64,000 nucleotides of DNA from an uncultured Candidatus Rokubacteria bacterium (GTDB lineage: Bacteria > Methylomirabilota > Methylomirabilia > Rokubacteriales > DASRDR01), in assembly GCA_963805625.1 (NCBI GenBank), contig CAWDVE010000010.1, forward strand, positions 32,001 to 96,000, written 5' to 3'. The position numbers and the translations under genes are program-made. Every line of letters starts with the position of its first letter. Within the stretch, counting starts at the first letter, position 1. The notes beneath the pieces were generated by a model, which ran no database searches, had not been told where the DNA came from, and saw only the letters and a program-made list of their open reading frames with translations. Below, piece by piece: positions 797-62,665 of the stretch.

Positions 797-1245
797 GGCT
801 CCGTGGAAATCCTACACTATATTTTCTCAACACTCTTTTATGGGCTGTGGCACGTAATGCTTCCGCCCCCGCCGCTGTGGCACCCCCCTAGAGCAATTAC
901 TCCAGAGAAGGTAATACAACATCATCGCAAAGCGCAGGGGCGGTTCGGGGGGACAGGCACTGTCCCCTCCGTAAATAGGTACTTTGCAATTCGTTGAAAA
1001 CTTAGAGTTTCCCATCGAAAGATTGCCAGCCAGATGGCCAGGTTTAAATACTTCGATCGGGAAGTGCCAATCCCGCAATTGCGATGACCTGCGCCGCCCC
1101 CGAAGGGACGCCCCCGCGGCGCTTCAATGTGCCTGAAAACTCCACCCTGGCCTCTCAAGAGCCTGTTACGGATGCCAGTCGTACCTTCACACTTTTTCAT
1201 GGTTGGGTGAGACCCATTCCCGTTCATGCCCGTTTCTACAGAGCC
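797..1245 (-). mobile_element. MITE-like composite element, copy 1 (449 bp)
   Basis: Inverted termini GGCTCCGTGGAAAT (797) and GTTTCTACAGAGCC (ends 1245). Internal modules are shared, reverse-complemented, with 23646-24074 and 53757-54284. Contains hairpin A at 1091-1122. Confidence 0.75.
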
Positions 1246-14709: not shown

Positions 14710-15258
14710 GGATCCCCCGACTCATGACATCTTCGAGGCATGGCGGATCAAGGAATGTTTTCAGATTTTATGTTGTTGATCCGCTGCGGGAGCACTCCGT
14801 CGGAGACGGCGGGGTCATCATAATCTGATCAGGATTACCGATTCTCATCTGGATTTTCATGAAGGTCCGAACACTTCTTTCATACAGGTTTCCCAAAAAA
14901 TTATAGTATTTTACGAGAGTCACCCGCCTCAGGGCCTCTCCGAGGCACGGCGGGTCAGGAGGTTTATTTCGGATTTTTGGTTATTGAACCGCCGCGGGGG
15001 CGTCCCTTCGGGGGCGGCGGGGTCATCATAAGTTTGATTCACAGATACCGATCCCCGTTCATCTCTGAATATTACGATTTTCATGGTTCAGGTTCGAACA
15101 CTTCTTTCATACAGGTTTCCCATAAAAATTATCAGTATTTTACGAGAGTCACCCGCCTCAGGGCCTCTCCGAGGCACGGCAGGTCAGGAGGTTTATTTCG
15201 GATTTTTGGTTATTGAACCGCCCCTGGAGCGTCCCGTCAGGGGCACCAGTCGTTCATC
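14710..15258 (+). repeat. Tandem triplet of the B-spacer-A hairpin unit (period about 210-229 bp)
   Basis: B at about 14714 (degenerate), 14922 and 15151; A at 14781 (degenerate), 14989 and 15218 (degenerate). Flanks such as GAACACTTCTTTCATACAGGTTTCCCA are also duplicated. Confidence 0.9.
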
Positions 15259-19996: not shown

Positions 19997-20298
19997 ATGA
20001 TGAACGCCGCCGCCCCCGAAGGGACGCCCCCGCGGCGGATCCAGTTACAAAGTTGGTAAATTTCGACAACTCTAAAAACCTCTGACCCGCCGTGCCTCGG
20101 AGAGGCCCTGAGGCGGGTGATCCTCATAAATTTTTTATGAAATTCACCGTTCAGGAATCGTTTTTTTAAACAGAGGATGATGAACACCGTTGTGTCCGGG
20201 GGACGTTTCCGCTGCTGATCATCCAGAAAAATCGGTCAATTTCTGATATATACCAGAACCGCCATGCCTTCGGAAAGACCTGTGGCGGGGACCCTCAT
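19997..20298 (-). repeat. Two B-spacer-A hairpin units, one intact and one degenerate
   Basis: A(rc) 20007-20038 and B(rc) 20085-20118; degenerate A about 20178-20220 and B about 20259-20292. Confidence 0.88.
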
Positions 20299-23645: not shown

Positions 23646-24074
23646 AGCTCTGTTGAAACGGGCATGAACGGGAAAATTGAACTAAACAGATGTTCGTAAT
23701 GGATTGTTTATTCTTCAAAATTATTTGCGATGAACCCCGCCGCCCCCGACGGGGCGCCCCCGCGGCGGATCAGTATCTGTAAGCATATTTGCAAAACACC
23801 GCACTGCCCCGCCGTGCCTCGAAGAGGCCCTGAGGCGGGGGACCCTCCTAAAATAGGATGGTTTAATGATTTTCATCGCAATTTGTTGAAATCTTAGGGT
23901 TTCTGAGGGGAACAGTGCCTGTCCCCCGACCGCCCCTGCGGTTTACGATTGTGTTGTATTACCTTCTCGGGAATTATCGCTCGACAGGGGATGTCACAGC
24001 GGCGAGTGTGGAGGCATTACGTGCCGTTGTCCTGAAGAGCGTTGAGAAAAATATTGTGAGGATTTAACAGGACC
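23646..24074 (+). mobile_element. MITE-like composite element, copy 2, with the internal hairpin cassette inverted
   Basis: Left end AGCTCTGTTGAAACGGGCATGAAC and degenerate right end ATTTAACAGGACC; A(rc) 23737-23768, B(rc) 23807-23840, module C about 23905-23972. Confidence 0.75.
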
Positions 24075-30953: not shown

Positions 30954-31410
30954 GGGGGCGGAGGCATCACGTGCCATAGCCCGAAAAAAGAGCGTTAAGA
31001 AAAATATTTTGAAAATTTCCCATCAAAATAGAATTAAACAGATGTGAGTAATGGATTGTTTATTTCTCATAATTATTTGTGATGAACCCCGCCGCGGGGG
31101 CGTCCCTCCGGGGGCGACGGCGATTATCCTTATGCATAGAAGAGTTGCAAATCTCATAAGATGATAGCAGTTTAAAGTATATTTCGGCATGAACTCCTTA
31201 GTTTTCAACAAATTGGAAATACCTATCTCAAAGGAACCCTGCGCCCCCGAAGGGCGCCCCCGCGGCGGATAGGTCTCGTAAGTATATTTGCAACACCGCA
31301 CTCCCCGCCGTGCCTCGGAGAGGCCCTGAGGCGGGGCCTCAGAAAATTATAGGGTTTAATGATTTTCATGTTCAGTGTGAACTCACGTTCATGCCCGTTT
31401 CAACAGAGGC
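30954..31410. mobile_element. Rearranged MITE-like composite element, copy 4
   Basis: End module 30954-31020, cassette flank, A(+) 31089-31120, A(rc) 31238-31268, B(rc) 31303-31336, terminus GTTCATGCCCGTTTCAACAGAGGC ending at 31410. Confidence 0.7.
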
Positions 31411-31442: not shown

Positions 31443-34400
31443 TCAGCCCGCTTTCTTATAACATATTTTTGCCTCTTCATGTTTACCTATGGTATCGAGT
31501 ACTCCCCCGATATCCTCCCAGACTTCTTTGCGCCCGGGATCGATTTCCAGCGCATGTTTAAAAGACGTGAGAGCTTCCTGATACTTTTCCTGTTCCTGTA
31601 ATGCACGTCCCCGGTAGATCCATGCATCTACAAAATCAGGCTGGATCGTTAACATCGTGTTGAACGATTCCACAGCCTCCATATACCGTCCGAGAGCAAT
31701 AAGTGCACTTCCTTTGGTGAAATAGGCGATGGAAAAGGAGGGGTCGGCAGTTATTGCATGTTCATATGATTCGATTGCAGCCTCGCTCTGGAATTGAGCG
31801 GCAAGTGCCATCCCATGACGTGTCCAGGCAACGGCATTCTCAGGATCAAGCTCAAGACATCGTTCATATGCGGAAAGAGCTTCCGGATATTTCCCAAGAT
31901 CGTAGAGCACATTCCCCTTCCCCATCCATGCCTCGGCAGAATTTTCATCCTGTTCCAGAGCTTTATCAAAGGTCTCCAGTGCATCTCTCGACATTCCAAG
32001 TTCGGCAAGGGAAGTCGCTTTATGGGACAGCGTCACTGCGCTATGACCGATTTCCAGAGAACAATCATATGATTGTATTGCTTCCCTGTGCTGGTCAAGT
32101 GCAGCATAAGCCATACCCTCAAAGTAATACAGGTCAGCAGTCCTGTAGTTGTTCTCAATGGCATGCTCGAATGCCCGTATCGCATCATCAAAATTGCCCA
32201 TCTCAAAATAAGCTCTCCCTTTCCAGAAAAAAGCCTGGTTACAGGCAGGGTTCATCTCGAGAGCCCGTTCAAATGCAGAGATTGCCGCGTCAGGATTTCC
32301 GAGAATGAAAAGAGCCCTTCCCTTCTCATAGACAGCATTTGCATACCCGGGACTGAAAGCGAGCGCAAGATCAAATGATGCAATTGCCTCTTCATTCTTA
32401 CCGCTGTGCATGAGTGCCCGCCCGCGTTCATAGAGAGCTTCCTCATTTTCCGGATTAATGCCAAGCGCAGCATCAAAGGCAACAATCGATGCATCATAGT
32501 CACCAGTACGGGCAAGAGCAATTCCCTTGTGGTGGTATGCCTCGGTATACCGGTCATTCAATTCAAGTGCATGATTAAATGCGGTTATCGCGTCGTCATA
32601 CCGTTCATGCCTGAGGTACGTGACACCCTGATAATAGAAGGCTTCCGGATAATCCTTCCGGAGGGAAAGTGCCCTGTCAAGTGCTTCAAGCGCTTCATCG
32701 TATCTGCCCAGGTGAATCAATGCAATACCACGGTACAGGTATGGGGCAGCTGATGGTGCCTCTTTGGAAATTGCATGATCATAACAGTCGAGAGCCATAT
32801 CGTATCTGCCGAGGTTTGCTTCAGCAATACCTTTACTGAGCCATGCATCCGTAAATGTGCTTTTTTCACCGATTGCCCGGTCGAATGCACCTATTGCCTC
32901 ATGATACATCAAAAGACTCATGAGAGCCTGTCCCTTCTGATAGAACGCCTGGACGCACTTCGGGCTGCGGGCCAGGGCAGCTTCGAAGCTTTTAATTGCC
33001 TCATGATACCTGCCGAGACGGGATAATGAAATCCCGGAATAATAGTATGCCCGGGGGTCTTTTGTATCGATGGCCAGTGCCTTGTTAAAGCAGGTTACGG
33101 CATCCAGATCCTTCCCGAGTGCTGAGAGGGCGAATCCTTTCCCGGTCCAGGCAAATGCAGCGGTGGGACGGAGACGTAATGCCTGATCAAATGAGGTTAT
33201 CGCTTCTTCGAACCGGGTGAGCCGGGTCAGGGCAATTCCCTTGTGGTAGAGTGCTTCGATATGTGCCGGCTCGGCTGCAAGTGCATTTTCGAAGGATACT
33301 ACTGCCTCGCTGTCCCTTCCCAGTTCAAAGAGTGCCCGCCCCTTGTAATACAATGCTGAAACGAAATCCGGGCGTATTTCCAGTGCGTTGCTGAATGAAT
33401 CATCTGCATCTTCGTAACGGGTCAATGCGAAAAGTGCAGTCCCTTTCAGGTACCATGCGTCAGCACTGGTCGGGTCAGTCGCGAGGGATTTCTCATATGC
33501 TTCAATCGCTTCATGATATCTGCCCAGTTCTGCCATTGCCATACCACGGTGCAGCAATGCTTCAACAGATTCGGGTTGTACCTGCAATACCCTGTCAAAT
33601 GCATCGATTGCATCTTTCTGCCGTCCGGTCGCAACAAGGGACAACCCTTTATTATAAAAGGCCTGTGCATTACCTGCATCAAGATCGATGTTTTTGTTGA
33701 AGGCGATAATGGCATCTTCATGGCGGCCCAGATTTGCAAGGGCACACCCCTTATGGAGATAGACATCAGCATAATTTCTCTCAATGCTGAGTGCCTTGTC
33801 AAAGGCTTTTACCGCATCACGGTACATGCCAAGAGAAGCGTGTGACTTTCCTTTGTTGTACCATGCCTCAGCAAAGGAAATATCGGTCTCGAGTGCCCGA
33901 TCAAACGATTTGACAGCTTCTTCAAACCTGCCGATATGAGCAAGTGCAGCACCCTTATAGAAAAGTGTATACGTGTGTTTCTGGTTGAAATTGAGTGCCT
34001 GGTCATAGACGGTAATTGCATCACCGGTCCGGCCGAGAATGTCCAGTGAACGCGCCTTGCTGTAATACGCCTCAAAATAATCCGGTTTCAGGGCGATGGC
34101 ATTTTCAAATGCTGAAATTGCCAGGTCGTGGCTTTCGAGTTTTGCATAAACAACACCCTGCTCAAACCAGATCTGTGCATCGTCACGGGTTATGGTAAGT
34201 AGTCTTCCGAATACTTCTGCAGATTCAGCATATCGTCCCAGTTCGGCAAACGATGATGCGTAAAAGAAGAGGGCATCCGTATTACCTGCTTCGACAGCGA
34301 GTGTTTTTCCCAGTGCACTGAGTGCTTCTTCAAATTTACCGAGGTGGAACAACGCAATACCCTTCTCACATAAAGCACTCGTAGTATCCGGTGAGAGCTT

Positions 34401-37400
34401 AATCACCCGGTCAAAGGAATCGATCGCCTCCTCAAATTTACCCAGGCTTGTAAAAACTCTGCCCCGCTCAAGATAAGCCCTGTGATTATCAGGACGGTAT
34501 TTTATACTGTTATCGAACGCATCGATTGCATCTTCGGGACGGTCCAGATACGTAAGTACCACACCTTTCTCATACCAGATCTCCCCGTCAGTATTCCGGA
34601 GTCCGAGTGCTGCGTCAAATGCATGTCCTGCCTCATCATATCTGCCGAGATTTGCCAGGGATATTCCCCGTAAATAGCTCGGTTCATACAGGTCCGGAAG
34701 GACAGATGAGGCATGTGCGAAAATTTCCTGAGCTTCTTCGTGCCTTCCCAATAGTGGCAAGGATCCGACCCTTCTCGGTCAGGAGCTGCCCGTTTTCAGG
34801 AGCCAGAGTCAGGGCAAGATCAAAAATATGCAGCGCATCGTTATAACGTGCGAGCCGCGAAAGTGCGCATCCTTCTGCGAAGAGCAGTGTGATATTCCGC
34901 GGGTCGTTCTGACGTGCTTTTTCAAATGCGGAAACGGCATCTTCGTCTTTACCCAGATGTTCAAAAGCGACGCCTTTATGGAACCATGCATCGGAATGGT
35001 CTCCAATCCGTAAAAGTACCTCGTTGAATGCCTGGATCGCATCTTCGTACTTCGTGAGATTTTCGAGTGAAAGCCCCTTATTGAAGTAGGCTTCGGCAAA
35101 ATCAGGATCAAGAACAAGAGATCGTGAAAATGAAGATTCCGCTTCCTCATACCTGCCGAGCATCGCATATGCAAGTCCCTGTTCGAAATGCCCGTCCCTG
35201 CTCTGATCATCAATTGCAAGCGCTTGTGAGAATGCAATGACCGCCTCTCCATGTTGCTTCAGGTTTGAAAGCGTACGTGCCTTGTAATAATGTGCATCGA
35301 ATGCATTGTTATCGAGAGCGATCGCCCGGTCAAATGCTTTGGCTGCTTCTTCAAACCTCATGAGATTGAAGAGGATGATGCCCTTGTTAAACCAGGTCTC
35401 GTAGCTGGCGGCATCAAGTTCGAGAGCCGCATCGAATGCCAGGAGTGCCTCTTCGGGTTGGTTCAGGTTTTTGAGGGAGAGACCCTTGTGATAATATGCT
35501 GATGACAGGGACGGGTCAACCGAGATCAGCTGGTCGAATGAAGCGACAGCATCCTGGTCTTTTGAGAGCCGGGCAAACGCGAGCCCCTTGTCATAGAAGG
35601 CACTGACAAACCTGGGATCAATAGTCGTAGCCTGTTCAAAAGCTTCGACAGCCTGGAGATCCCTGCCGAGTTTTGTCAGGGCGATACCCTTGTCATACCA
35701 GGCATTTGCATACCTGGGGTTAATGGCAAGGACCCGGTCATACGATGAGACGGCTTCTTCGTGCCTGCCGAGTTCTGAGAGTGCGATTGCCCGGTCGTAC
35801 CACCCGTAGGCTGAACCGGGTTTGATGTCAAGGGCACGGGTGAGAGCATCCAGCGCCGGTTCAAACCTGCTGAGCGAGAGCAGCGTACTTCCTTTTCTCA
35901 GCCACGCCGGTGCACACGCCGCATCGTGTGCAAGAACCTGGTCAAAGCAGGCAATTGCATCTTCCGGGTTCTGGAGTTCGATGTATGTCTTTCCCTTCCG
36001 GTACCATGCTGTTGTGTTGTCCGGTGCAAGGGCAGTTGTCCTGTCAAATGCTTCGAGTGCCTCTTCAAACCGTCCCAGTTCGAAAAGCACCCTCCCCTTG
36101 AGCAGCCAGACGTCAGCGACAGTGCTTTCAAGGCTGAGTGAGGATTCGAGCGCCCCGAGCGCCTCCTCAAACCTGTGGAGAGATGCCAGGATGACTACCC
36201 TTGTTGAACCAGGTCTCGTAGCTGGCGGTATCAAGTTCGAGAGCTGCATCGAATGCCTGGAGTGCCTCTTTGGGACGGTTCAGGTTTTTGAGGGAGAGAC
36301 CCTTGTGATAATATATCGGTGCGTGTGACGGTTCAACAGCGATTGCCCGGTCAAATGATGCAATGGCATCCCGGTCTTTCGAGAGCCGGGCAAATGCGAG
36401 CCCCTTGTCATAGAATGCATGGACAAACCTGGGATCAATAGTCGTAGCCTGTTCAAAAGCTTCGACAGCCTGGAGATCCCTGCCGAGTTTTGTCAGGGCA
36501 ATACCCTTGTCATACCAGGCATTTGCATATCTGGGGTTTAAGGCAAGGACCCTGTCATACGATGAGACAGCTTCTTCGTGCCTGCCGAGTTCTGAGAGTG
36601 CGATTGCCCGGTCGTACCACCCGTAGGCTGAACCGGGTTTGATGTCCAGGGCACGGGTAAGGGCATCCAGCGCCGGTTCAAACCTGCTGAGCGAGAGCAG
36701 CGTACTTCCTTTTCTCAGCCACGCCGGTGCACACGCCGCATCGTGTGCAAGAACCTGGTCAAAGCAGGCAATTGCGTCTTCCGGGTTCTGGAGTTCGATG
36801 TATGTCCTTCCCTTCCGGTACCATGCTGTTGTGTTGTCCGGTGCAAGGGCAGTTGTCCTGTCAAATGCTTCGAGTGCCTCTTCAAACCGTCCCAGTTCGA
36901 AAAGCACCCTCCCCTTGAGCAGCCAGACGTCTGCGACAGCGCTTTCAAGACTGAGTGAGGATTCGAGTGCCCCGAGTGCCTCCTCAAACCTGTGGAGAGA
37001 TGCCAGGATGATGCCCTTGTTGAACCAGGTCTCGTAGCTGGCGGTATCAAGTTCGAGAGCCGCATCGAATGCCAGGAGTGCCTCTTCGGGGCGGTTCAGG
37101 TTTTTGAGAGAGATTCCCTTGTGATAATATGCTGGTGCCAGAGACGGTTCAACGGCGATTGCCCGGTCAAATGATGCAATGGCATCCTGGTCTTTTGAGA
37201 GCCGTGCATAAGCGAGCCCCTTGTCATAGAATGCTTTGGCAAACTCCTCATCAAGTGTCGTAGCCTGTTCAAAAGCTTCGACAGCCTGGAGATCCTTGCC
37301 GAGTTTTGTCAGGGCGACACCCTTGTCATACCAGGCATTTGCATATCCGGGGTTAATGGCAAGCACCCTGTCATAGGATGAGACAGCCTCTTCATGCCTG

Positions 37401-40400
37401 CCAAGTTCTGAGAGTGCGATTGCCCGGTTGTACCACCCGAAGGCCGAACCGGGTTCAATATCCAGGGCACGGGTGAGGGCATCCAGCGCCGGTTCAGACC
37501 TGCTGAGCGAGAGCAGTGCACTCCCTTTTCCCAGCCACGCCGGTGCACACGCCGCATCGTGTGCAAGAACCTGGTCAAAGCAGGCAATTGCGTCTTCCGG
37601 GTTCTGGAGTTCGATGTATGTCTTTCCCTTCCGGTACCATGCTGTTGTGTTGTCCGGTGCAAGGGCAGTTGTCCTGTCAAATGCTTCGAGTGCCTCTTCA
37701 AACCGTCCCAGTTCGAAAAGCACCCTCCCCTTGAGCAGCCAGACGTCAGCGACAGTGCTTTCAAGGCTGAGTGAGGATTCGAGTGCCCCGAGCGCCTCCT
37801 CAAACCTGTGGAGAGATGCCAGGATGATGCCCTTGTTAAACCAGGTCTCGTAGCTGCCGGCATCAAGTTCGAGAGCCGCATCGAATGCCAGGAGTGCCTC
37901 ATCGGGCCGGTCAAGGTTTTTAAGGGAGAGACCCTTGTGATAATATATCGGTGCCTGTGACGGTTCAACAGCGATTGCCCGGTCAAATGATGCAATGGCA
38001 TCCGGTCTCTTGAGAGCCGTGCAAACGCGAGCCCCTTGTCATAAAAGGCACTGGACAAACTTGGGATCAATAGTCGTCGCCTGTTCAAAAGCTTCGACAG
38101 CCTGGAGATCCCTGCCGAGTTTTGTCAGGGCGATACCCTTGTCATACCAGGCATTTGCATACCTGGGATTAATGGCAAGGACCCTGTCATAGGATGAGAC
38201 GGCCTCTTCGTGCCTGCCGAGTTCTGAGAGTGCGATTGCCCGGTCGTACCATCCGTAAGCTGAACCGGGTTTGATGATCCAGGGCACGGGTGAGGGCATC
38301 CAGCGCCGGTTCAAACCTGCTGAGCGAGAGCAGCGTACTTCCTTTTCTCAGCCACGCCGGTGCACACGCCGCATCGTGTGCAAGAACCTGGTCAAAGCAG
38401 GCAATTGCATCTTCCGGGTTCTGGAGTTCGATGTATGTCTTTCCCTTCCGGTACCATGCTGTTGTGTTGTCCGGTGCAAGGGCGGTTGTCCTGTCAAATG
38501 CTTCGAGTGCCTCTTCAAACCGTCCCAGTTCGAAAAGCACCCTCCCCTTGAGCAGCCAGACGTCAGCGACAGTGCTTTCAAGGCTGAGTGAGGATTCGAG
38601 TGCCCCGAGTGCCTCGTCAAACCGAAGAAGTTTCACCAGAACAGATGCCTCGCTGATAGAGCGCAGGAGCATTATCCGGCTCCTTTTCCAGCACGGTATC
38701 GAATGCATCGAGAGCTTTTTCATTTTTTCCAAGGCTGACAAACGACAGACCAGACTGGAATATCGCATCTGTCAGGGAACTGTCATAGATAAAAGCCTGG
38801 CTGAATGACCGGATTGCCTTTTCGTATTTTGCTGTGGCTTTCAGCACGAGTCCCTTATAATAATGTGCATAAGCGTGCTCCGGAACATTTTCAAGAGTAT
38901 AGTCAAAGGCTTTGATGGCGTCTTTGTACCTGCCTGTGCGGTAAAGTGCAAGACCTTTATTATAAGCTGCGTCGGTAAAGGAAGGGTCCAGGGCAAGTGT
39001 TTTTTCATAAGCACTGATGGCGTCATCGTCATACCCGAGTGAAGACAGTGCAAGTCCCCGGCCATATGCTGCATCAGCGCTGCCGGGTTTCAATTCGAGT
39101 GTTTTATCAAATGCCAGAATGGCATCGTTGAAATACTTTAGCTTATAAAGAACCTGCCCCCTCGCCAACCAGATATCAGCATCGTCCGGAGTAAGTTCGA
39201 TTGAACGGTTCAGGGAGGCAAGAGCATCTTTGTCGCGTCCGGCTGCCATGAGGGCGTTCCCGCGGTGGTAGTTGAGATAACCGGTTTCAGGTCCGATGGC
39301 AAGTGCCAGATCGAATGCTGTAACCGACTCCTCGTATCGCCCGATGGTTTCGAGTGCGACTCCTTTTTTGTATGCAGCGTCCTGCATACCCGGGCTGAGT
39401 TCAAGGGTACGATCAAACGCAGGCACCGATTCTTTAAACCGTTTTAGTATACAAAGGACATCTGCTTTATTGTACCATGCGACTGCACATGAATCGTCCA
39501 GAGACGACGCCATGCCGAACGCTTCAAGGGCATCCTCATACAGTGACATCTGCTTATAACTGATCCCGCGGTAATACCATGCAGTGGCATGCTGTTTGTC
39601 AAGAACAATCACCTTATCAAATGCTGAGACTGCCTCTTCCCACCGTTTGAGGTGAAGCAGGGCTTTACCCCGGTGAATAAGGGCAAAAATGTTCTGGGGT
39701 TCACGCCTTAACGATTTCCCGAAAGATTCAACTGCTTCCTTGAATCGGAACAGCTTATAGAGTGAATACCCCTTGCATGAAAGGAGACCTGAATCCGTGG
39801 TGTCCTGTTCCAGTGCCCTGTCCAGTGCAATTACTGCGTCTTCGTACCGGGCAAGTTTTACTAAAGCAACACCCCTTCTCCGGTGTGCCCGGGTATTTTC
39901 CGGATCAAGGAGGAGAGTTGCGTCGAACTCTCTGATTGCTTCCTCATACCGGGCAATCTTTTCAAGAATCTCACCCTTGACGAGATGGGAAACCACATCA
40001 GTTGTATCAAGTTCGAGTGCGCGATCGAATGAAGCGATTGCATCCTCATACCTGTCGAGCCGGGAGAGCACCATTCCCTTTTCAGCATAGATACGGGAGT
40101 TATCCAGACCCATCTCAATACATGCATTGAATGCTTCCAGGGCAGATTCCGGTTGGCCGAGATGGGAATATGAAAGCCCCTTCTCAAAAAGGATCTCACC
40201 TGAATCAGGTTTGAGAACAAGAACGGCATCGAATGCTTCTATTGCCCGGTCGTATTTTTTAAGGATGAAAAAAGATCTTCCCATCTCTTTCCAGGCTTCT
40301 ATCCGGGATGGGTTGAGAGCCACGGAACGGGTGAAAGCCTCAATGGCATCAGAATACTGATGCAAACGAACGAGAGCGGCACCTTTATAATAAAATACCC

Positions 40401-43400
40401 GTTCGCACGAGGGGTCCAGCTGGTTAATCCGGGTATATACGGTAACTGCTTCTTCAGGCAAATCCTGGCGGTCTGTTGCCCGGGCAAGACCGTACAATGC
40501 TGTCAGATCATCTGGATTTGTGATGAGTACATTCCTGAATGCTTCAGTCGCCTCCGGATCGCGTCCGAGAGCATAAAGCGCTCTCCCCTTCTGCAGATAC
40601 GCATCTGCAAAATCCGGCATCAGACGGTTTGCCTGTTCGAAGGCTGCAGCGGCTTCTGATACCTTCTGAGCTCTGGCAAGTGCGATTCCCTTATAGTAAT
40701 ATGCTTCACCAAATTCCGGTTCGAGAGCCAGTGCATGATCAAATGCTGCAACTGCGTCATCAAAATTGTCAAGGCTGATGTGGGCCCTGCCTTTATAGAA
40801 CCAGGTATGGGGATTGTCCGGGTCAATTTCCAGTGAGGTTGCATAAGCAAAGAGAGCGTCCTGAAATTGTTCGAGAGCAAAAAGACAGAATCCTTTTATC
40901 AGCCATGCATTGGCGATCCGTGGTTCAGCCTCGAGTGCACGGGAAAGGGCCTTTACAGCGTCGCTGAATTCACCAAGCTCGGCAAGAGCCAGTCCCTTGT
41001 GGTACATCGCATCGGTAAAACCGGGATTAATCTCAAGGGCGCGTGTAAATGCCATGGCCGCTTCATCATGATGTCCCAATACCGCGTGGGATAAACCATA
41101 CCGGTAAAATATATCTGCCCTTCCGGGATCGATTGTACTTGCCGCCTTAAAGGCAGCAGCTGCCTGTTCATGTTCATCCAGATGTGCAAGCGCAATTCCC
41201 TTCTGATAGAGTGCCTCAGGATTATCGGGGGTCATTTCAAGGGCACTATTGAAAGCGGATAGTGCTTCGTCATACATACCCACATTTGAAAGGGCTATAC
41301 CTTTATTGAAGAAGGCTGGTGCGAAATGGGGAATCAGTTCCAGTACGCGATCAAACGAGGTGACCGCTTCAGGATACCTGCCAAGGTGAATCAATGCCAG
41401 ACCCCGGTCATAATACACCTGTGCATTACCCGGATCGAGGCTCAATAGCCTGCCCAAAGGCAGTAACGGCAGGCTCAAAGCGTTCCAGGTCAGCAAGGGC
41501 TTTTCCTTTCTGGTAAAGTGCTTCGATGAAGTCCGGTTTGAGTTCTATTGCCTTTTCGCAGGCAGCAAGCGATTCTTCATTACGACCCAGGTCGTGAAGT
41601 GCGACTCCTTTTCGCAGTGCGGCTTCCGCTGAATCCGGATCCAGTTCAAGCGACCGGTCAAATGCATCTATCGCCTCCTGGTAGCAGCCCATGCCATACA
41701 GGGCCAGTCCTTTCTGGAAAAATCCCGGGGCATATGACGGAAGGAGGGAGAGTGCCCTGTCAAAAGAGACAACCGCTTCGCTGAACCTGTCCAGTTTTGC
41801 CAGGGCAACGCCCCGGTTGTAGTGCGCATCTGCGAGTTGGGGATTTGTTTCAAGAGCGTGATCAAATTCCTGAATTGCCTCGTCCGTCCGGGATAATTCC
41901 AGGAGGGCAAAACCCTTATGGAAATGAGCATCAGCAAAACCCGGTTCAATCTCAAGTACCCTGTCATAGGCATAAATTGCCTCGGAGGTGTTTCCGGAAT
42001 CGAAAAGTGCTCTTCCTTTCTGGTAGTATGCATGGTAATTTTTGGGGTTATCAGTAATAATCTTGTTAAAGTCCCTGACAGCATCCCTGAATTTTTTAAG
42101 ATGAGACAGGGCGATGCCTTTTCGCATCCGTGCTTCTGCATAATTCGGTTTTAGCTGAAGCGTCTTTTCGAAAGCAAAGATTGCCTCATTGTAACGGTTC
42201 TGACCCATGTAGGCCTTGCCCTTGTGATAGAAAGCCAGTGCATTATCAGGATCATAAATAAGTGCTTTATCAAAAGCCTCCAGTGCCTCTTCGAATCTTC
42301 CAAGCCGGGAAAGTGCCAGACCCCGGTTATAGTGCCCCTGTGCATTCCCCGTATCCTTCTCGAGATTCTTATCGAAGGATTCAATGGCTTCAGCGTATTT
42401 TTCCAGCTTAAAAAGTGCAAATCCGAGATGATAATAGACTTCAGTGAATGAAGGATCAATTTCCAGAGCGCGGGTAAATGCAGAAATTGCATCGGAATAT
42501 TTTCCGCTCTGGTTTAAGGATTTTCCCTTGTTATACCATGCAGGTGCAAAGGAAGGCAGGATATCGATAGTCTTTTCGAAAGCTTCGATGGCATCACGGT
42601 GATCTCCAAGTCTGGCTAATGCAAGTCCCTTATGATACAGGGCTTCATAATTCCCGGGATCAATTTCAAGGAGTATCTCATATGCATGGATCGATTCGTC
42701 GAATCTGTTCACTTTTTCCAGCGCGAGCCCCTTGTAGTGAAATGCTTCAATGCATCTCTGGTCCAGGGCTATAGCATTATCAAACGCATCAATAGCATCC
42801 TGGTATCTCCCAATGTCAAAGAGAGCCTTCCCGTTTCTGACCCATCCGTCGACCTGACCGGGATCAATTTTCAGGGATTTGGTGAATGCGACGATTGCAT
42901 CTTCCGTTCGCCCGAGATCATTCAGGGCATCACCTTTCTTCATCCAGATGTCGCGAAGCGCAGGGTTAATATCAAGGGCACGGGAGTAAGCAAAAACAGC
43001 ATCCTGGATTTTATGGAGATCGTAGAGAGCATTGCCTTTTTTTACCCACGCCTCCGCGAAATTCGCATTAATCTCCAGGGCTTTTGAATATGCGAGGACA
43101 GCATCCTGCTTTCTCTGAAGAGAAAAGAGGGCATCTCCCTTCTGCATCCAGATCTCGATTATCGTCGGATTGAGCGAGAGAATCCTGTCGTGTGTCTCGA
43201 TAGCTTCGGGATACCGCCCAAGCTTAAAGAGTGATTTTGCACGGCAGATGAGTGCTTCGATAAGCGACGGGTTTGCTGATAAGCTCCTGTCCAGTAAAGG
43301 AATAGCTTCTTCGTAACGGGACAGTTCAGCGTTGGCGATACCCTGGTACATGTAACTTTCAGTGAGTGTTGGATCGATTTCGGTCGCTTTTTTGTTTGCA

Positions 43401-46400
43401 GCGATAGCATCCTCATACCGCTTTAATTCGAGATACGAAAGTCCCAGGTAATAGTAATTTGAGGCGTCGGACGCATCCAGGGACAGGGCCGCCTCAAAGG
43501 ATTTGACGGCATCGCTATAGCGTTCACGCTGGACAAGGGCGACTCCTTTGAAATGATGCGTTGATGGATTTGAAGGATCAAGAAGAAGTGCTTTGTCGAA
43601 TGCTTTTATCGCATCGCTGTATCGTTCTTTACCGGTAAACGCGACACCGAGGAAATAGAACCCCAATGCATTTTCAGGCTCGATTTCCAGTGACTTCTCA
43701 AATGTCCTGATGGCATCATCGTATCTCTCGCGCTGGGTAAGAGCAATCCCTTTCTGGTACAGGATTTGTGGATTATTGGGAGATATTTCCAGTGCCAGGT
43801 CGTAAGATACGATAGCTTCCAGGGGTTTCCCAAGGTGAATAAGGGCATTTCCCTTTTCAAAAAATGCACGGGCGCAACGGCGGTTGATCTCAATAGTTTT
43901 ATCAAAAGCATGAACGGCTTCTTCAAATCTTTCAAGAGCCGACAGCCCGATACCAAGGTAACACCATGACCAGACATCGCGTGGCTGTTCTTCAACCGAG
44001 CGGGTAAGAATCAGCACCGCTTCTTCAAAATGGTGAATTTTGATAAGTTCGATACTTTTTCGTACTGTTGCTTCAGTAAGTCCTGGATCCAGCACGAGGG
44101 CCTGATTAAAAGCCTCAATTGCCTCGTCATGTAAACCAAGATTTGCCAGGGCAATACCCTTGTTCAGCCATAATCCGGGACGCGAGGGATCATGTTCGAG
44201 TGCTTCCCTGAAAGTATCCAGAGCTTCCTGATAGTGTAAAAGACGTAAATGGGCAATCCCTTTCCCGGATAATGCCTCGTGATTATAGGGGGAAATTTCA
44301 AGGACGCGATTAAAAGCGTCGATTGCATCGGAGTATTGCCTGAGCTTCAGGAGCGTTTCTCCCCGGTAAAACAGCGCAGGAATATAGAGCGGATTGATTC
44401 CAATTGCCCTGTCGAAAACATTCAGGGCCTGAGAATAATTTTTCTGGTGAACCAGCGCAAGTCCCATGGCATAATGAACCTCAATAAAATCCGGTTGAAG
44501 TTCAAGTGCGATGTCAAAGGACCTGATTGCATCATCATACCGTTTCAGCTCGGAAAGAGAAATTCCCTTATGGTAGCTGATCATCGGATCATCAGGGTTT
44601 AGTTCAAGTGCCCTGTCAAAGGCTGCAATTGCATCCTTGTGCCTGCCCAGCTGGGACAAGGCAATCCCTTTCCTGCGATAAGCGGGGGTGCAACCATTAT
44701 TGATCTCTATGGCTTTATCGAATGACTGGAGCGCTTTTTCGGGCTGCCCTCGTGCCGCAAGGGCAACACCCTGATAACACCAGAGCAGGGCATCCCCGGC
44801 GCATTCCCCGGGAACGCTGCTGAATACTCCGAGAGCCTCCTCATGTTTTCCAAGTTTGACGAGTGCAATTCCTTTTCTGACCAGCGCATCTGTTCTTTTT
44901 GGATCCAGCAGAATCGCCTGATTAAATGCCTCGACTGCTGCTTCATACTGTTTCATCTGCTGGTGCACAATCCCGGAATAATAATAGGAAGGTGCATGGG
45001 CAGGATCGAGTGCAACAGCCCGATCGAATTCTGTAAGGGCCTCCTCAAAGTGATCCAGCTCGATAAGGGCAATACCCTTAAAATGGTGGACAAGGGAATA
45101 TGAGGGATCGATGGCAAGGGAATGATCGAATGCGGTTACCGCTTCAAAATACCGCTCGGTTCCGGCATATGCCAGTCCAAGAAAATAATATCCCGAAGCA
45201 TTTTCCGGTTCATGTGCAAGGGCATGTTCGAATGCATCGATTGCATCGTCAAAACGTTCCTGACGAAAGAGAGCGACACCTTTCAGATAGATAATTTTCG
45301 GATTATCAGGTTCGATCTCCAGTGCACGGTCATAGAGATCTGCCGCTTCTGACTGGTCACCCAGATAGGAGAAGGCGTTTGCTTTCTCATAGAGTGCACG
45401 TGTGCACCGCGGGTTGATCTCCAGAGTTTTGTCAAACGAACGAATGGCTTCTTCAAATCGTTCGACAGATGAAAGGGCGATACCTTTATAGTACCATGCC
45501 TGGTCATTGCCCGGCTGTTCTTCAAGAGCACGGTTAAGAATTGAGATTGCCTCATCATACCGGCAGAGAGTAATCAGGACAATTCCTTTACGGACTGCTG
45601 CCTCCGCATGCCGGGGATTTAATATAAGTACCTTCTCGAATGACGCGATGGCTTCATCTGCCATTCCCAGTCTGCTGAGGGCAATTCCTTTCTGGAGCCA
45701 GCCTTCGGTAAGCGCCGGGTTTTGCTCGATTGCCTCGTTAAATGCCACCAGTGCTTCCTGATATCGTGAAAGATGGAAAAAAGCCAGACCTTTATTAAAC
45801 CATGCACCGGTATTCTGCGGTACCTGTCCGAGTACGCTGTCGAAATCCAGTATCGATTCAGCATAATGTCCGGTCTGCAGATAAGCGGTACCGCGCTGAT
45901 AGAGAACGAGGGTATTTGCCGGATCAATTTCAAGGGCCTGATCGTAGGCATATACGGCATCTTCATATCTCCCCAGCTGAATGAGTGAAAGTCCCAGGTT
46001 GTAATAGGCATTGATGTAATTCGGGTTGATGGCAATGGCGTGTTCAAATGCATCAATTGCCATTTCGGACTTCCCGAGCTTTGCCAGGGCAAGACCTTTA
46101 TCATAGAATGCCTGGGCATACGAAGGTTTGATCCCGATACTTTTATTGTATGATTCAATTGCATCAGGATATTTACCGAGTTTGGCGAGCAGGAGTCCTT
46201 TCTGGTGAAATGCCTGTGCATTTTCCGGGTTCTGTTTGATTGTCCTGTCAAATTCCTGAATGGCTTCATCGACATTTCCCAGTTTTGCGAGTGCAAAACC
46301 CTTATGGAAATATGCATCCCCATACATCGGATTGATCTTCAGGGCCCTGTCGTACGCAGAAACTGCTTCCGTATACCTGCCAAGGCTGGCGTACGCAATT

Positions 46401-47664
46401 CCGCCCTGGAATGCTGCCTGTGAACATCCGGGATCCAGACGAAGCGCCTGTTCGAACGATTCAATCGCTTCTTTATGCCTGCCCAGCTTCGTCAGGGCAA
46501 TGCCCCGGAAATAAAATGAGGCAGGATGCTCCCCTTTTTTCAAGCAGAGCCTGGTCAAATGATGCCAGCGCATCCTCGTACCGGCTCAGCCTGATGCAGG
46601 CAACTCCTTTCAGGTACAACGCATCGGAATTTTCCGGCTCAAATGAGAGAGTACTGTCAAAATCCAGCATCGCATCCCGGTACTTATGCAGATGGGAAAA
46701 CGCAATGCCACGATTGTAATATGCGGGAGTGTTTCCCGGGCTGAGCTCTATGACTTTATTAAACGCAGAGACTGCATCGGTATATTTTTGCATCGCGTTG
46801 AATGCAAGTCCTTTATGAAGCCATGCATCAGCCACAAGCGGGTTCATCTCAAGGGACCGGTCGAGTGCTGCTACAGCTTCGTCATATCTTCCGATTCTGA
46901 AAAGAGAAATTCCTTTTATTGCCCAGATATCAGCATGCCCAGGTTCCTGCCTGAGAAATGTATCGGCCGATTCGACAGCTTCTTCAAAACGTTCCTGCTT
47001 CGCGTAAATAAAACTGCGGTAATACCAGACCCATATATCAGTGGAATCTATTTCAAATGCTTTATTGAATGCAATCAGCGCGTCATCATATTTCCCGATG
47101 TCGTAGAGTGAGATTCCCTTATTATAGAATGCCTTTGCGTAACCGGGTACGATTTCGATGGCCTTATCGTATGCCAGAATTGCTTCAGAGTGCATGTTGA
47201 GATCGGCAAGTGCAATTCCCTTGTTATAATAGACTTTCGCATGCCGGGGATCGACGGTCAGTGCGTGATCATATGCACCGATTGCTTCTTTGTAGCGCCC
47301 CAGTCTCATAAAAAGCAATGCCTTTAAGGATCCATGCTTCGGCGTTGTCCCATTTGATGGTCAGTAAACGATCACATGCTTCCAGGACATCCTCGTTTCT
47401 TCCCATCTGGGCGAGGGTCGCTGCTTTATTATACCAGGCATTGGTATCAATGGGATCGATAGCAACTGCATGATCATACGCATCGATGGCATCCTCGTAT
47501 CTGCCGAGATCATACAGAGCAATGCCTTTAAAATAATAGGCTTTTGAAAAATCGGGAAAGAGGGCAAGCGCACGATCAAACATGACAATGGCTTCCTGAT
47601 ACCTGCCAAGGTCATAGAGTTCGATGCCCTGTCGCAACAATGCCTCAGCATCACTCTTATTCAT
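31443..47664 (-). CDS. Giant TPR-repeat protein (about 5,400 aa if joined), broken by roughly 9-10 single-base frameshifts
   Basis: Consecutive overlapping ORFs (47269-47664, 46473-47318, 41426-46573, 38617-41496, 38187-38768, 38039-38314, 36167-37723, 34684-36249, 31443-34760) are all uninterrupted 34-aa TPRs that stay in register across the junctions. Confidence 0.85.
35372..38623 (-). repeat. About 4 near-identical tandem copies of an 816-bp unit (272 aa, 8 TPRs)
   Basis: GCATCGTGTGCAAGAACCTGG recurs at about 35921, 36738, 37554 and 38371. Confidence 0.92.
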
Positions 47665-48044: not shown

Positions 48045-48118
48045 AGCCTGTGGCGAGATTTGAACTCGCGACTTCCTCCTTACCAAGGAGGCACACTGCC
48101 GGGCTGTGTCACACAGGC
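48045..48118 (-). tRNA. tRNA-Thr(GGT), CCA not encoded
   Basis: Acceptor stem GCCTGTG/CACAGGC, anticodon arm CCTCC-TTGGTAA-GGAGG, T arm GCGAG-TTCAAAT-CTCGC. Confidence 0.95.
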
Positions 48119-49879: not shown

Positions 49880-50245
49880 GAGCAACGCCGCCGCCCCCGA
49901 AGGGACGCCCCCGCGGCGGATCAATAACAAAAAATTCTCACGAAACCAACTGACCGCCGATGCTCCTGGAGAGGCCATGAAGCGGATTGTCACAAATGGT
50001 AACGATTTTCTGGAAAAGACATGATATATCTCGCATCCGGATTTCGAGAATTGTGTATTCAGATATAGATCAGAAATTGGCAGCTCTCCATACCATAAAA
50101 GGAAACATACTGCCCCGCCGATTTGACCTGCGGCGGATCGGCAACAAAAAAATTCTCCCTGAACCTGCTGACCCGCCGTGCCTCGGAGAGGCCCTGAGGC
50201 GGGTGACATTCATAAATGTCGATGATTTTCTGGAAAAGGACATGA
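49880..50245 (-). repeat. Tandem pair (about 220 bp period) of the B-spacer-A unit
   Basis: Intact A(rc) about 49887-49919 with degenerate B, then degenerate A with intact B(rc) 50171-50204; shared flank GATTTTCTGGAAAAG..CATGAT. Confidence 0.88.
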
Positions 50246-53756: not shown

Positions 53757-54284
53757 GTCTCTGTTGAAACGAGCATGAACTGGAGTTCGCACCCATACTG
53801 TGAAAATCATTAAACCATGTAATTTCAGGAGGATCCCCCGCCTCAGGGCCTCTCCGAGGCACGGCGGGGCAGTGCGGTGTTTGCAAATCATGTTTACAGA
53901 CACTGATCCGCCGCGGGGGCGCCCCGTCGGGGGCGGCGGGGTTCATCGCAAATAATTAAGGGATATAGACATTCCACAACGCACATCAGTTTAATTCAAT
54001 TTAATATGGAAATGTCCCGGTATTTCCATTCTGTGTGCCTGTGGCCGCAGGCATCGTGTCTATTTTCATGGGAAACCATAAGCAGTCCAACAAATTGCGA
54101 ATCACCTGGTGTTGGACGGGAAGTGCCTGTCCCCCCGAACCGCTCCTGTGCTTTGTGATGGTGTTGTATTACCTTCTCTGGAATTATTGCTCCAGAGGGG
54201 GATACAACAGCGGGGGTGGAGGCATTACGCAGCGTGGCCAAAAAAGAGTATTGAGAAAAATATTATGAGGATTTCGACAGAGCC
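53757..54284 (+). mobile_element. MITE-like composite element, copy 3 (528 bp)
   Basis: Termini GTCTCTGTTGAAAC and ATTTCGACAGAGCC; B 53836-53869, A 53908-53939, module C about 54117-54182. Confidence 0.78.
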
Positions 54285-59769: not shown

Positions 59770-60089
59770 ATGATGAGGGTTCCCCGCCTCAGGGCCTCTC
59801 CGAGGCACGGCGGGGCAGAAGGGTGATTAGCAGAATTTTTCAGGTTTGTGAAAAACCATGAATCTAAATAAATCCCTATTGGGCTCATGAGATTGCTTCT
59901 CCAGTGAATCACCGGTAAAAACTGAAAAATTGTTCTTTTGTAAGAATGTGTATTTCTGCCCATTAGTATTTATGAGACTCAGTCGCCTCGGGGCTTTCCC
60001 GAGGCATGGCGATTCAGGGAAGTTTATAAGGAGTAACTCTCTCCCTGATCCGCCGCGGGGGCGTCCCTTCGGGGGCGGCGGCGTTCATC
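59770..60089 (+). repeat. Lone B hairpin followed by a full B-spacer-A unit
   Basis: B 59782-59815; variant B 59981-60014; A 60050-60081 followed by CGTTCATC. Confidence 0.9.
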
Positions 60090-62544: not shown

Positions 62545-62665
62545 AGAGAGTCACCCGTTTCAAGGCCTCTCCGAGGCACGGCGGGTCAGAGAAGTGTCGA
62601 GATTTTTATTTTTTTAACTACCAGTCCGCCGCGGGGGCGTCCCTTCGGGGGCGGCGGCGTTCATC
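62545..62665 (+). repeat. Single B-spacer-A unit
   Basis: B 62553-62586, A 62626-62657, then CGTTCATC. Confidence 0.92.

Follow-up and report, generated by a model that had tools for sequence, protein, structure and literature searches.

Methanoregulaceae genomes contain a repeat whose conserved core consists of the two hairpins B and A, and which is frequently borne by MITEs that have the same ends as IS5 (ISH1-type) elements. This is documented by the repeat itself, its terminal inverted repeats (TIRs), 8-bp duplications, empty sites and autonomous IS copies, as well as by the covariation of the stems, the slow change of the intact cores and the pattern of variation of the B loop. The chances are about even that the core is kept by selection on folded single-stranded DNA and that, for B, the selected strand is the one opposite the strand carrying UUCG (minus and plus strand of the unit, respectively).

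The window, i.e., the whole stretch of 64,000 nucleotides under analysis (positions 32001-96000 of contig C10 of the bacterial assembly G000), is methanogen DNA joined into a bacterial assembly. The GC content of the assembly is about 69%, vs. about 50% across C10 from 1 to ~143 kb, where methanogen genes are present. This segment is collinear with contigs of a relative genome (G156), with an identity of 91-95%, and an exact search with the B core retrieved almost only Methanoregula/Methanoregulaceae records among the matches listed (the best 80 of 121 loci); collinearity and matches together identify the window as a methanogen segment, whose presence in C10 is probably due to chimeric assembly or contamination. 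The GC jump lies near C10 143.5 kb, where the 50%-GC segment (C10:1-143000, with the whole window inside) meets a 69%-GC contig; the end of another contig (G000:C25:82000-94725) is likewise low in GC (38-51%). The sole non-methanogen title among the best 80 of 121 loci is L007, a 4.2-kb contig of a Dehalococcoidia MAG, which is probably mis-binned. A giant TPR-like repeat gene (window 31443-47664) is split into at least eight ORFs and corresponds to a single open frame of 5408 aa in G156; since glnA and nrdD also appear split, the segment probably carries indel errors. A tRNA gene (window 48045-48118, minus strand) is the sole Rfam match in the window.

Over 145 kb, 26 copies of B and 25 of A were counted (at most 11 mismatches), and G156 harbors 127 copies of A at two mismatches or fewer. 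When 150 genomes of the order were searched with a covariance model, 26 gave matches; the family sample accounts for all of these except three, with one match each. A also occurs without B. The units of the window are reported in the table.

Table. Units of the B-A repeat in the window (window coordinates).
Feature	Position	Strand	Description
Hairpin B, intact	59782..59815	+	Outer stem of 7 bp and inner stem of 5 bp separated by a 5x2 internal loop; 3-nt loop, GGA when read on the minus strand; no difference from the G156 ortholog
Hairpin B, decayed spare	59981..60014	+	11/34 positions changed
Hairpin A, intact	60050..60081	+	7-bp outer stem, G-run/C-run/G-run interior with NNCG; identical in G156; followed by a conserved GTTCATC shoulder reaching 60089
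TIR-bounded MITE, A-only variant	797..1245	-	A at 1091-1122; flanking 8-mers match 5/8
Array of three B-A units	14715..15249	+	Middle pair alone (14922-14955, 14989-15020) intact in both the window genome and G156
Decayed B, then intact B and A	20007..20290	-	Decayed B 20257-20290, intact B 20085-20118, A 20007-20038; G156 carries an extra MITE inserted in the orthologous spacer
429-bp TIR-bounded MITE	23646..24074	.	A 23737-23768 (-), B 23807-23840 (-); module inverted vs. the usual order; absent from G156
Rearranged MITE	31089..31336	.	A 31089-31120 (+), decayed A (-), intact B 31303-31336 (-)
Intact B and intact A	49888..50204	-	B 50171-50204, A 49888-49919; truncated A and decayed B in between
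528-bp TIR-bounded MITE	53757..54284	+	B 53836-53869, A 53908-53939
B with two U.G, intact A	62553..62657	+	B 62553-62586, A 62626-62657; the G156 site holds a MITE bounded by TIRs, and there both of these pairs of B are C-G

Many of the B-A units sit in MITEs of 250-530 bp with 13-bp TIRs, whose ends match those of IS copies of ~1.0 kb with one or two mismatches in 13. This partner IS (0.99-1.01 kb) is flanked by a perfect 8-bp duplication at seven IS loci, and both of the transposases tested exceed the cut-off of the NCBIfam IS5 model NF033579. The table in PMC6352166 gives the ISH1 group a length of 900-1150 bp, an 8-bp DR and one ORF, and the partner IS matches this subgroup of IS5. The 8-bp target duplications of the MITEs are perfect in L141, L144, L330, L331 and L350, reach 7/8 at C10 104.8-105.3 kb, and just 5-6/8 for three MITEs of the window. 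Empty sites exist in G156 for window 23646-24074 and for C10 ~111.2-111.7 kb. The autonomous IS copies contain neither B nor A, and the unit at 59782-60089, a core without ends that is related to the MITE cargo, is not bounded by a TIR pair in the window genome or in G156; hence, IS5 carriage does not explain every copy. Other partners were rejected, no matching TIR pair being present around 15 loci of the IS903 type (PF13737) or around 30 loci of IS1595 (PF12762), which had initially been suspected on the basis of its end and duplication rules.

Orthologous sites of the window genome and G156 that have one or both MITE ends in common differ in what lies inside, the interior having been inverted or replaced in place. 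At window 31089-31410 and at C10 97.6-98.0, 104.8-105.3, 119.1-119.3 and 131.2-131.5 kb, one or both ends match G156 and the interiors differ or are inverted. Different interiors at sites with common ends suggest either that the interior was replaced in place once an element had been excised or that insertion hot spots are very strong. On three separate occasions, the B-A spacer received a MITE of 220-254 bp with the same ends (L144:359-612 and the G156 orthologs of window 20007-20118 and C10 126.7-127.0 kb), and L314:609-2521 is an IS5 copy with a second element inside or beside it, the same 8-bp duplication occurring at three junctions. A small ORF on the minus strand (ATG to TGA) was discarded, as the spacer length is not kept in frame.

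The conservation of the cores was assessed on 22 clusters, 21 of which were aligned to G156; eight collinear clusters were counted, three rearranged ones were treated apart, and ten (empty or restructured) were left out. The intact cores differ from G156 at 23 of 583 sites (~4%), vs. 1750/12238 (0.143) at four-fold sites and 0.19-0.20 in the flanks, used as neutral yardsticks; compared with half the neutral rate, p is 0.0008, with the intact class defined on one lineage. Decayed copies are changed at 49/221 sites and intact cores at the three rearranged loci at 13/103. Among 48 unselected MITE copies, the deviation from the consensus is 3.5% for B and 2.4-3.7% for A, vs. 8.9% for the TIR and 16% for the spacer. 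Exactly one intact B is found in 12 of 13 two-copy arrays (p ~0.0008, some orthologous loci being counted twice). About half of the 21 aligned loci were lost, flipped or replaced in G156, so that no single copy looks essential. The idea that B and A are transposon ends whose outer copies survive was dropped, the outer B being the best one in six arrays and the inner in nine; as to long-range pairing between the outer shoulders, no covariation appeared among the top mutual-information pairs.

The sequence-only reading had proposed that covariation and strand-biased G.U pairs reveal hairpins maintained as single-stranded structures on the UUCG strand. All the bases that it quoted are found in the window: the terminal pair of B is A-T at 14922, 20085, 50171 and 62553 and C-G at 23807, 31303, 53836 and 59782; the 59981 copy reads AGTCGCC/GGCGATT in the outer and GCTTT/GAGGC in the inner stem; CCCGTT/GGCGGG occurs at 62553 and GCGCCGC/GCGGCGC at 1091; and the A loops include TTCG, GTCG and TCCG. 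The terminal pair of B (1:34), regarded as its closing pair, does not form in 44 of the 103 distinct rows, and the CGTCCC/GGGGCG stem of A, with its U.G, cannot form together with the 7-bp outer stem, since both need G26-C27-G28. The 59981 copy is a decaying spare located beside the intact B at 59782, with three substitutions and one insertion, including an A.C pair, in its 33-nt core with respect to the G156 ortholog (position 34 is also changed); its U.G pairs give no evidence of maintenance.

The covariation itself is real and exceeds that of shuffles in larger alignments. B has 26 double-change cells vs. 12.4 in shuffles (103 distinct rows), and the outer stem of A has 14 vs. 2.5 (71 rows). 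In 105 model-aligned matches from relatives, where the alignment is fitted to the structure and the sequences are related, 85 double changes vs. 21 were counted, at 17 of 19 pairs; in this set, pair 16:22 of B is UA in 41, CG in 32 and GC in three matches. In A, double changes occur at 5:28 and 6:27, none at 13:28 or 14:27, and zero at the three pairs closing its NNCG loop. Double changes are strand-neutral and are also silent on RNA vs. DNA. The part of the proposal that stands is that the hairpin shape is kept, as indicated by covariation and by the tolerance of the B loop, with intact cores changing well below the neutral rate; the part that does not hold is the assignment to the UUCG strand.

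The strand bias of the G.U pairs was not confirmed as stated. In the window, G.U and A.C pairs on the UUCG strand number nine each over 24 copies (6:3 in B and 3:6 in A, with one A copy carrying an indel adding 1:1); the G.U pairs had been listed and the A.C pairs at 14715 (two), 14781 (two), 15151, 15218 (two) and 31089 omitted. Over all loci, each hairpin was scored only in loci not selected on that hairpin, and indel copies were excluded. The G.U:A.C ratio is 114:81 for B (239 copies; p 0.02, kinship uncorrected) and 49:44 for A (255 copies). Pair 16:22 of B alone gives 15:1 (T.G vs. C.A), and without it B, counted per locus, gives 90:76 (p 0.31); the covariance-model set from other species gives 29:30 for B and 16:15 for A. 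The B count is inflated by a subfamily with two C>T changes in G156. At unpaired positions, the ratio of C>T to G>A is similar, 1.5-1.7 per site, and in MITE copies B shows C>T at 21/657 vs. G>A at 7/565. In the non-hairpin controls of the MITEs the sign differs by segment: the spacer shows the same excess (C>T 36/236 vs. G>A 12/230) and the E segment the opposite one, which indicates that subfamily history dominates. Position 15 of A alternates between C and T, and three of the four folds examined place it opposite a G. A weak lean to the UUCG strand remains in B, carried by few alleles; the claim for that strand is not established, and the data do not single it out.

It is known that C(UUCG)G and the other UNCG loops are established RNA tetraloop hairpins. 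In A, a UNCG loop is present in a minority of copies (75/180), the loops being mostly GTCG (74) and TTCG (67), followed by TCCG (8), ATCG (7) and GCCG (7). Moreover, C(UNCG)G, when reverse-complemented, gives the DNA mini-hairpin C-GNA-G, so that a UNCG loop cannot choose the strand. Several folds fit the G-run/C-run/G-run interior of A, and one of them, devoid of the NNCG loop, scores equal to the UUCG folds; a variant present in relatives, in which position 11 is A, speaks against it. A looks like a two-state fold. A short A variant (A4 rows L480, L490 and L495), which lost one base in each of three homopolymer runs, retains both possible inner stems.

The loop of B is more informative when read on the minus strand. 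Among 186 copies whose arms are intact, 140 have GGA, and G...A is retained in 39 of the other 46; the changes of the triloop fall 12 times in the middle, four times at the 3' and once at the 5' position. The loop tolerates a one-base insertion at the tip, and 28 of 30 tetraloops are GNRA; a few copies in relatives have T-rich loops following neither the GNA nor the GNRA rule. This variation is as expected for a sheared G.A loop on the strand opposite UUCG, and suggests that B likely folds on that strand. RNA triloops are weak. According to PMC13037366, GCGNAGC and GCGNNAGC fold into DNA mini-hairpins that are very stable, more so than their RNA counterparts; such mini-hairpins occur in priming and promoter sites (G4 origin, ssiA, N4 promoter). 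The folded form is probably single-stranded DNA rather than RNA. Against single-stranded DNA and the minus strand, the 114:81 ratio of B and the 15:1 ratio of its pair 16:22 favour the plus strand; GNRA tetraloops suit RNA and DNA equally, and the loop of A gives no strand. B on the minus strand and A on the plus strand have outer motifs in common (CTG..CCGCC...GGCGG...TCRYAA), so that the unit resembles an inverted doublet of the REP type, for which a single working strand is not required.

The core might instead work as RNA on the strand opposite UUCG. Host transcripts that read through at their 3' ends would contain its GC-rich stems and GNRA-type loops, which would either stabilise the mRNA or end it, and one intact copy per spacer would suffice. 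The placement of the units agrees with this: 82 lie in convergent and 21 in divergent spacers (background, 61 vs. 69), and in co-directional cases the minus strand is sense in 48 of 72 and the UUCG strand in 24. The GNRA tetraloops, the single intact B per array and the stem-loop MITE transcripts described in PMC10969869 point in the same direction. Convergent enrichment would, however, also result from promoter avoidance, a third of the co-directional cases are oriented oppositely (gene calls being crude and loci non-independent), and the loop found most often in B, a GNA triloop, is a motif of DNA rather than of RNA; on balance, RNA on this strand appears unlikely. Four RNA runs (unstranded contigs, distant relatives) gave short matches from relatives only, with no strand information; Rfam contains no match to the unit at the gathering score, and C/D-box, k-turn, hammerhead and HDV-like readings, compared by eye with the consensus, did not fit. 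The original proposal, in which the unit acts as RNA, or as one DNA strand, on the UUCG side, can invoke the wobble ratios of B and of its pair 16:22, the C/T alternation at position 15 of A and the C>T excess of the MITE copies of B; it is quite doubtful, considering the near parity of A, of the window and of the model-found set, the inflating G156 subfamily, the discordant spacer and E segment, the minority of UNCG loops, the lack of an Rfam match and the mostly antisense position of the UUCG strand with respect to its neighbours.

The cores might also be neutral MITE cargo, more than 100 copies of which would be kept alike by gene conversion, with no selection on structure, the apparent compensatory changes arising from template-switch correction of palindromes and being inherited in subfamilies. 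The double changes are indeed mostly a few alleles that recur from copy to copy (B 16:22, A 1:32), the overall counts of G.U and A.C are close to equal, and the interiors inverted or replaced in place make copy-to-copy exchange likely. However, B and A stay identical to G156 on either side of a 30-40 nt spacer whose divergence matches the neutral rate, which would require conversion tracts shorter than ~40 nt and specific for the hairpins; the unpaired bulge bases are as conserved as the stem bases, which correction of the arms cannot bring about; the spare copies beside an intact one decay; and the loop changes are confined to the tip. Neutral cargo is, thus, rather improbable.

In the mechanism favoured here, the element would be mobilized by the IS5 transposase in double-stranded form and would land in A/T-rich gene spacers. 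When the DNA becomes single-stranded, during replication or post-excision gap repair, the shape and the sequence of the hairpins would both be recognized by a protein, in keeping with bulge bases conserved like stem bases. Such a reading might favour the copying, or the keeping, of one intact module per site, and would account for modules inverted and swapped in place.

Searches of carriers and relatives for Y1, RAYT and TnpB did not yield a protein partner for the hairpins. RAYT (NF047646) was found in none of 33 carrier genomes, many of which are incomplete MAGs; Y1 TnpA (PF01797) was found in none of five carriers and in one of 151 family genomes, the latter without B; and the sole Y1/TnpA match in G000 lies on a high-GC contig. 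B or A is located near three of 30 TnpB-like PF07282 loci, on one side only, and the possibility of an IS200/IS605 MITE (PATE) was rejected, as no Y1 TnpA or TnpB gene is flanked by hairpins. Clustering the ORFs of the first 121 loci disclosed no recurring protein. A short TnpB-like gene (~220-260 aa; L362-L379, L390, L391) has strong scores in ~19 of the 28 Methanoregulaceae genomes searched; it is mostly single-copy, often has the same neighbour and lacks the N-terminal part, and RuvC-type motifs seem present by eye, so that it is possibly a domesticated TnpB.

MITE interiors are usually regarded as neutral filler. The interior described here is conserved several times better than the ends needed by the transposase, across dozens of methanogen species and without RAYT, and this bears on what keeps REP-like repeats intact in the absence of a dedicated transposase. 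To our knowledge, REP-like repeats are little described in archaea. A bolder and rather unlikely reading is that the unit is an archaeal, RAYT-free counterpart of REP doublets, i.e., a single-stranded DNA hairpin pair with mini-hairpin loops, selected site by site and hitchhiking on IS5 MITEs, which would act as a priming or protein-loading signal driving module copying and inversion in place. As for the method, a UUCG loop with hand-picked G.U pairs fixes no strand and proves no RNA, since what reads C(UNCG)G on one strand reads C-GNA-G on its complement.

As regards known systems, about 40% of the A copies can form a plus-strand C(UNCG)G like that of the UUCG/UNCG RNA tetraloops; the commonest loop of A is, however, GUCG, its closing stem is without covariation, and the opposite strand equally offers C-GNA-G. 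The DNA mini-hairpins of PMC13037366 resemble the minus-strand loops of B (C-GNA-G or C-GNRA-G) and the CCGAAGG of the A T-allele; the stem context differs, and the motif is missing from half of the A copies. CGTC-type REPs without a dedicated transposase, and REP dimers, are reported in Di Nocera et al. 2013 (PMC3733652). With the REP dimers, REPINs and BIMEs treated therein, the B-A repeat shares imperfect GC-rich palindromes of 30-35 nt, heterodimers with a variable spacer of 20-60 nt, clustered arrays, an intergenic location and many near-identical copies across species. It differs from REP dimers in being archaeal, in having no RAYT or Y1 in its carriers and in lying often inside DDE-type MITE ends; neither a terminal GTAG nor a CGTC tetranucleotide emerged from the flank profiles of 170 units. 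MITEs with structured interiors are known, and MITE transcripts forming stem-loops have been described (PMC10969869). PMC13343696 mentions a Methanoregula genome solely for its IS content, and no description of the B-A family was found in the literature searched; the supplements of PMC13343696 might list such elements. With the IS5/ISH1 MITEs of the ISTth7 type described in PMC6352166, the elements have in common shared TIRs, the 8-bp duplication, a 1-kb single-ORF partner, A/T-rich intergenic targets and the absence of an ORF. Unlike in those MITEs, the interior has no match in the partner IS and is built of inverting, swapping modules, conservation is higher in the hairpin core than at the ends, and many cores exist without ends.
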